DNA from: Octopus vulgaris
Taxonomy: Eukaryota
DNA length: 64,000 nucleotides
Direction of reading: 5' to 3'
NCBI GenBank assembly: GCA_951406725.2
Contig: OX597823.1
Span: 18,104,001-18,168,000, forward strand
Positions within the stretch are counted from its first letter, which is position 1. Every line of letters starts with the position of its first letter. Below, piece by piece: positions 62,676 to 62,929 of the stretch. Position numbers and translations under genes: made by a program. The notes beneath the pieces were generated by a model that was not told where the DNA came from, ran no database searches, and worked only from the letters and a program-made list of their open reading frames with translations.

Positions 62676-62787
62676 ATATATTTATATATATATATATATA
62701 ATGTGTGTGTGTATATATATATATAAAATATAAAATGGGACAAGAACGCAAAACATTCAGATAGACGATACAAAAACACGGACGGGT

Positions 62788-62929
62788 CATTCAAAGCCTC
62801 TAATCTTCAGTCAAGAACTGGATCATCCTCGCAATTTCGGCTGATTAATCTTAAGATTGCTCCAATCTGGCCAGCCCCAAGGAAAAACTAAGCTATGAGC
62901 ATTAGATTTCTTGGATAAAGGATCGAATG
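62788..62929 (-). ncRNA. Structured RNA motif with reversed hammerhead-like core (family 2)
   Basis: CATTCGATCCTTTAT|CCAAG..CTTGG|GGCTG..CAGCC|GAAA|24 nt|CTGAAGA|TTAGAGGCTTTGAATG. Confidence 0.55.

Follow-up and report, generated by a model that had tools for sequence, protein, structure and literature searches.

Type-SGC hammerheads (HRIMA-1 and its variants), and with them the S-G-C order of the hammerhead building blocks, were defined by Eckert et al. (2023; PMC10085705), who are the only authors in the literature searched to use the term type-SGC; the available text of that study assumes that the CUGANGA strand and its stem II strand are contiguous. Insertions into the core at other hammerhead positions have been listed (PMC3088659), and the PK hammerhead has also been treated in a review (PMC12192606). 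Among the Penelope-like elements (PLEs), Naiads are described as targeting (TA)n and as being without canonical hammerheads, carrying at times a 'half core' (Craig et al. 2021; PMC8557442); Naiad_Ovul is annotated there as 'HHR_half_core'.

The window, i.e., the whole stretch of 64,000 nucleotides that was analysed, contains near its end a sequence in which we see, with good but not full confidence, the 3' terminus of a repeat (family A) that is Penelope-like and probably related to Naiads; the permuted hammerhead RNA predicted from it likely self-cleaves at a site 123 nt before the element ends (Table 1). The original prediction had described a closing stem, two hairpins, GAAA and CTGAAGA at this site, together with a downstream TTTGTAT. 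All of these motifs are present on the minus strand (62929-62768): the closing-stem words CATTCGA (62929-62923), CCTTTA (62921-62916), TAGAGG (62802-62797) and TTGAATG (62794-62788), the hairpin words CCAAG (62914-62910), CTTGG (62881-62877) and GGCTG (62876-62872), and CAGCC-GAAA (62843-62835) followed by a 24-nt spacer and CTGAAGA (62810-62804). TTTGTAT lies at 62774-62768, and the word TTGTA occurs within 60 nt past A9 in 20 of 42 intact copies (mean of shuffles 5.9, maximum 14). The three helices are all found in the minimum-energy fold, yet the description was incomplete, as stems I and III and one further helix had been overlooked; in the nomenclature used here, the closing stem is P1, the first hairpin is P2, and the third hairpin is stem II.

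Table 1. Features of the octopus repeat copies in the window, with positions counted from its first letter.
Feature	Position	Strand	Remark
Family A repeat copy, 5'-truncated, 206 bp	62732..62937	-	95.6% identity to 3' end of the 836-nt unit
P1 5' strand (outer closing helix)	62916..62929	-	least supported helix
P2 hairpin, abutting stem II directly	62877..62914	-	
Stem II 5' strand, first base G10.1	62872..62876	-	drawn from upstream, not from the bases after CUGAAGA
I-II linking helix, 5' strand	62865..62870	-	two mismatches in window copy
Stem III 5' strand, last base U16.1	62856..62860	-	
Predicted cleavage site after C17 of the AUC triplet, 62855^62854	62854..62855	-	by analogy with hammerhead numbering
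Stem I 5' strand	62849..62854	-	one G-U pair in window copy
Stem II 3' strand, last base C11.1	62839..62843	-	
GAAA (G12 A13 A14 A15.1)	62835..62838	-	
Stem III 3' strand	62831..62835	-	
I-II linking helix, 3' strand	62818..62823	-	
Stem I 3' strand	62811..62816	-	
Core strand CUGAAGA (C3-A9)	62804..62810	-	
P1 3' strand, beginning 1 nt past A9	62788..62802	-	
TTTGTAT, enriched 3' of the core	62768..62774	-	
(TA)n-rich tail or target site past the fixed 3' end	62690..62731 (boundaries approximate)	-	
Related subfamily copy, G12 at 9732	9668..9849	-	stems I and III show compensatory changes
Family B copy, G12 at 35514, predicted cut 35531^35530	35371..35690	-	4-nt deletion, leaving a 4-bp stem I
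Family B copy cut off just 5' of GAAA	14279..14436	+	without substrate strand

What reveals the identity of the structure is a substrate strand, ending GCAAT-C-TTAAGA, in the loop of the third hairpin. Stem III arises where the first part of this strand pairs with five bases beginning at A15.1, and stem I where the second part pairs with the six bases that precede CUGAAGA; in stem I, six of six pairs are Watson-Crick in most family A copies. The core letters of the hammerhead (C3 U4 G5 A6 N7 G8 A9, G12 A13 A14, A15.1-U16.1 and H17) are complete in the window copy, whose core words are CUGAAGA, GAAA and AUC. An RUH triplet is present in 42 of 42 intact copies, the U-H part being a requirement of the search descriptor, and H17 lies 14-17 nt before G12 in all 42; among the first families fetched, the distance is exactly 17 nt in 76 of 78 distinct matches. 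As in hammerheads, stems I, II and III adjoin the core and covary, and there is a helical contact between stems I and II, with a score of at least 12 in 43 of 51 copies and a register that is uncertain in family A (in the window copy, 62866-62861 may alternatively pair with 62822-62817).

The linear arrangement of the building blocks, S, G and C with a short linker from stem I to stem II, is that of type-SGC hammerheads, whereas the circular C-G-S order without pseudoknots that characterizes types I, II and III is replaced by S-G-C with crossing stems. A type II hammerhead with its stems inside the 24-nt spacer was considered and rejected on inspection, which found no usable stem I or III. Searches against Rfam returned no family at its gathering score, and none near threshold, for 62730-62945; for the whole window, the 150 rows listed out of 460 comprise miRNA matches driven by repeats, a piece of 28S and a single weak match to a pestivirus UTR. 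The structure is predicted to be a hammerhead fold that is permuted in a non-circular manner. The proposal that a selected RNA structure, rather than chance folding, underlies the motif is supported by the genome counts and the covariation discussed below, while the class of that structure, a permuted hammerhead, had gone unrecognized.

The same helices are built from entirely different letters in different families. Stem II, for instance, reads GGCTG/CAGCC, GAGCA/TGCTC, GAAGG/CCTTC, GACAC/GTGTC or GCCCA/TGGGC, and it starts with the pair G10.1-C11.1 in 15 of 15 hand-picked representatives, the partner having been chosen among G starts. In an alignment of 12 sequences from the A-like cluster, both partners have changed in 19 of 37 pairs, a number reached in 0 of 500 shuffles and contrasting with 4-7 in slid controls; its 25 invariant columns include U16.1, C11.1, GAAA and five of the six conserved positions of CUGANGA. 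The families fall into two sequence clusters plus the Naiad type, all with equal spacing. In the 2.8-Gb genome, family A yields 3,988 first-look candidates and family B, to which the motif at 35.5 kb belongs, about 4,000. Helix order and core spacing were thought to recur in this second family, and so they do, with different letters and equal spacing. Its characterization as sequence-unrelated is roughly right at the level of alignment (z 3.8-5.0 for family A against family B, z 1.6 for the units upstream), the weak signal between the two probably reflecting the shared core words. Recurrence in a second family does speak for a selected structure, but it need not mean an independent origin; judged from the sequences, common descent with compensatory change would fit at least as well as convergence.

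Several observations concern the surroundings of these repeats. Families A and B have upstream parts (L006:1725-2300 and L052:1000-1520) that do not align, yet both contain CT-rich tracts, TCACGTGAC words and the word GTAAG, which resembles a donor site; they possibly represent a promoter and an intron. Canonical-order hammerhead-like cores that belong to other repeats were seen by eye in upstream flanks (L006 at about 1340-1390, L050 and L052), and a further permuted-hammerhead family is inserted within a Naiad 3' region (L458:1430-1560). Within the window, a copy of an abundant SINE-like repeat (62277-62671, plus strand), of which the window holds more than ten relatives, abuts the TA tail of the family A copy. 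A fragment of 28S rRNA occupies the window end (about 63500-64000, minus strand). This match ends near what we take to be a known retroelement target region.

Extending the copies upstream, as had been proposed for identifying the parent element, led to the 836-nt family A unit, which bears Penelope-like hallmarks. It has a fixed 3' end, a TA run follows 26 of 31 3' ends, 13 of 88 3' ends run on into a unit start, inverted copies occur upstream, and locus L006 holds an ORF-less tandem with 852-nt spacing. The fixed 3' end, TA tail, run-on and inverted and tandem copies match the PLE hallmarks set out in the available text of Craig et al. (2021; PMC8557442). Family A inserts at (TA)n, is 5'-truncated, occurs in tandem and inverted copies and ends in a short tail, features that Naiads share with other PLE clades. 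The Naiad open reading frame (N-terminal GIY-YIG, CxC and reverse transcriptase) is absent from family A in the loci examined, and no Naiad reverse transcriptase (RT) lies beside copies of the A, B, C and D types in 310 loci. Since, moreover, family A cannot be aligned with the N-type end (z 0.9), its Naiad origin is deduced from architecture only, and we regard it as probably a Penelope-like, Naiad-related repeat. It may be a non-autonomous, retrozyme-like unit that would be moved by the enzyme of another element.

The link to Naiads is direct only for the N family. By eye, the permuted layout can be recognized in the 3' ends of the published sequences of Naiad_Obim and Naiad_Ovul and, among the matches listed, of three coral Naiads and two further records; those that show it include Naiad_Amil, Naiad_Aacu and Naiad_Anas. 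The version found at the published octopus Naiad end has 398 matches in the genome against 0 for the control. This N-type end lies in sense orientation 1.0-2.4 kb downstream of 24 of the 40 Naiad RT remnants that were examined out of 44 found, and never in antisense; the RT pieces match, by eye, the published Naiad_Ovul translation, and 13 of 30 N-type copies pass the descriptor.

Several candidate associations were set aside. At L110 a PLE RT fragment lies next to an inverted piece of family A, and at L458 a B-like ribozyme is found downstream of a Naiad RT; both cases look like separate insertions and were not counted. All tblastn matches at loci of the A, B, C and D types traced to a SINE-derived part of one query and were left out of account. 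A young Neptune-type element was likewise rejected as the carrier, as it possesses a canonical minimal hammerhead in three of four loci and no permuted one. In its own right, this element (seen in L165, G000:C2:147320898-147324428, and in 150 scored matches) is a very young PLE: its open frame has 775 aa, its copies are 99% identical, its tandem period is 4,271 bp, its first-look candidates number 18,646, and its 3' end carries a minimal hammerhead of type I. The window itself contains a degraded PLE open reading frame (22718-24395, plus strand) with an RT and GIY-YIG region that is about 37% identical to the Neptune protein; it ends in a long TA run, and 24300-25600 contains no canonical core match.

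Cleavage after C17 is the most likely function of the fold, an assignment that we make with fair assurance. In tandem transcripts, the cut would release unit-length RNA (from cut to cut), and reverse transcription may be primed in the TA-rich linker, so that linear RNA would give rise to short copies starting near the cut, and uncut or re-ligated RNA to longer or tandem copies. The 5' ends of 75 copies are distributed relative to the predicted cut as follows: 22 at -1 to +15, eight at -14 to -3, four at -100 to -15, and 41 further up. With a query placed downstream, 58 starts were obtained, five of which fall at 0 to +6, 12 at +7 to +45 and four at -53 to -7; the excess at -2 to +6 has a p value of about 0.015 when pooled and of 0.23 for family B. 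These two counts supersede a first one (6 of 34 at 0 to +6) that was censored by its query. The ends do accumulate near the site, but the step seen with the downstream query is broad and not a peak, and a reverse transcriptase that stalls on the structure would leave a similar pattern. As a separate observation, L006:1591-1689 is represented by one deep contig each in runs X7 and X11 (depth 565 and 1,260), runs that we can only guess to be RNA; both contigs match from +8 of the predicted cut on, the sequence 5' of the match is different, and there is a related joint that runs back near the 3' end.

Alternatively, the fold, although derived from a hammerhead, may no longer need to cut and may serve as a signal for recognition or processing by the reverse transcriptase or for 3'-end formation. 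The copies end about 124 nt past the predicted cut and not at the cut, 41 of the 75 copies extend through the cut site far upstream, and opening the link between A9 and 10.1 could impair catalysis, all of which would suit a mere signal. Canonical PLE hammerheads, however, likewise sit upstream of the element end, and a signal would leave it unexplained that the catalytic letters and the RUH triplet have been kept across families that share little else, and that the invariant alignment columns include U16.1, C11.1, GAAA and nearly all of CUGANGA. We therefore consider this explanation unlikely, if still the most serious competitor of a self-cleaving RNA.

The most unusual trait of the predicted hammerhead is the origin of its stem II. 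The strand that pairs with C11.1 and its neighbours sits 20-28 nt upstream of H17; in 43 of 51 copies this upstream partner reaches a score of 10 or more, compared with one of 51 when the partner is sought 0-2 nt after A9, where an intact C block would place it, and the upstream partner beats every downstream option in 47 of 51. In a permutation test on the 15 representatives that grants equal search freedom, and that replaces one with pre-chosen registers, the upstream partner attains 14.7 against 8.6 after swapping (0 of 20,000) and the I-II helix 13.8 against 10.8 (1 of 20,000), while a partner directly after A9 does no better than swapped ones; as the hand-picked representatives share ancestry, these counts overstate independence. 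The I-II helix connects the sequence that comes after stem II with the one preceding stem I, and its 5' strand follows directly on the upstream stem II strand. P1 is formed by the bases after A9 together with sequence far upstream, and it encloses the hairpin P2. P1 receives modest support, 128 of 20,000 swapped and 16 of 300 shuffled sets scoring as well, and the null control for P2 covers one 4-bp part within the 12-sequence alignment.

From 5' to 3', the predicted order would be the P1 5' strand, P2, the stem II 5' strand and an I-II strand, then the substrate strand (stem III, NUH, stem I) and a short linker, then the stem II 3' strand, GAAA, the stem III 3' strand and the other I-II strand, and finally the stem I 3' strand, CUGANGA and the P1 3' strand. 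A9 would not be linked to G10.1 but joined to it via the two extra helices, and P1, P2, stem II and the A9-G12 core pair would meet in a four-way junction, through which stem II would stay stacked on the core. At the sequence level, all core letters, their fixed spacing and the covariation of stems I, II and III as well as of the I-II helix are established.

One might instead envision an ordinary type-SGC hammerhead whose stem II is built from the bases after CUGANGA, the upstream pairing and P1 representing an inactive switch fold. Family B and its relatives can indeed form a weak helix of 3-4 bp after a 1-nt insertion, family A can form one of 4 bp after 5 nt, and a partner located after A9 beats shuffled sequence. 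This partner, however, lacks the family-specific matching that the swap test detects for the upstream strand, it is outscored in nearly all copies by the margins given above, and the upstream strand is immediately continued by the I-II helix, so that we hold such a switch to be quite improbable and retain the upstream stem II as the preferred assignment.

Genome-wide, the pattern CGAAA-N20-25-CYGADGA has 32,774 matches, compared with 5,987 for the reversed pattern. An S-G-C descriptor that includes stems I and III finds two matches among the 13 core matches of the window and none in 30 shuffled windows. Applied to all of the first 100 listed of the 32,774 core-order matches, it detects a substrate strand in 42 (the intact copies used above, whose stems I and III are hence selected by the descriptor), whereas shuffled upstream sequence gives a mean of 0.72 and a maximum of four, and about 10% keep the match when upstream sequences are swapped across families. 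Seventy-five of the 100 can be assigned to a family; the 58 that fail the descriptor are truncated, mutated or chance matches, many of them copies truncated within the substrate strand, and the 35.5-kb copy fails the 5-bp descriptor because a 4-nt deletion shortens its stem I. In metagenome controls, none of 114 testable core matches (118 in total, four too short) carries a substrate strand. An unselected genome sample of 400 kb contains a single descriptor match (shuffles 0-1), which is not family-like, and the copies are therefore patchy in their distribution; the match in question (L072:8519, minus strand) is AT-rich and probably due to chance.

That chance pairing was merely amplified through the copy number of one or two repeats is scarcely credible, for although the window copy alone folds with unremarkable stability (z = -1.04, matched by 31 of 200 shuffles) and about 18% of the core-order matches are expected by chance, the excess over chance stems from recurrence and covariation and not from single-sequence fold energy, many families keep the same helices and spacing with different letters, published coral Naiad ends display the same layout by eye, and the metagenome controls are empty.

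The permuted fold is likely to be the ribozyme that Naiads were reported to lack. Taken further, we favour, though with appreciable reserve, the view that these sequences represent a further hammerhead topology, opened between A9 and G10.1 by a four-way junction, that would provide the missing Naiad ribozyme from corals to cephalopods, occupy some 25,000 places in this genome and drive Naiad-type retrozymes. If the RNA cleaves, the published three-block rule for hammerhead permutations would be broken, the range of non-circular permutations would extend from environmental RNAs to animal genomes, where their copy number would be very high, and it would be explained why Naiads seemed to thrive without a ribozyme. 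The permuted layout also offers a new descriptor for ribozyme searches, which currently miss such folds, and the four-way junction at the core would be a natural attachment place for regulatory helices.

Within the literature covered, which mostly excludes subscription papers, we found neither a permuted hammerhead in Naiads nor a core opened between A9 and 10.1. The octopus repeats resemble Naiads in that they target (TA)n, are truncated at the 5' end, occur in tandem and inverted copies and have a short tail, and the available text of Craig et al. (2021; PMC8557442) does not recognize the permuted fold in these elements. With the hammerheads of PLEs and of non-autonomous tandem units they share the position of the ribozyme near the 3' end, as does the young Neptune-type element found here, but those hammerheads have C-G-S order and a hairpin stem II, in contrast to the S-G-C order of the octopus fold; the main text of a 2026 preprint on them mentions no SGC, octopus or four-way junctions. 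The PK hammerhead (Zhan et al. 2024; PMC11300833), as described in the text available, similarly combines an extra helix (IV) and a helical I-II contact with an unchanged core; there, however, A9 is followed directly by G10.1 in the canonical C-G order, whereas the octopus fold would be opened between the two. Closest are the type-SGC hammerheads of Eckert et al. (2023; PMC10085705), which, in the published text available, likewise run from substrate via GAAA to CUGANGA, and have all core letters, stems I and II joined by a short linker, a further I-II helix and covariation in stems I-III. Cleavage has been demonstrated for these and is predicted for the octopus fold, which departs from them in that the 5' strand of stem II comes from upstream and P1 and P2 bridge A9 and G10.1.
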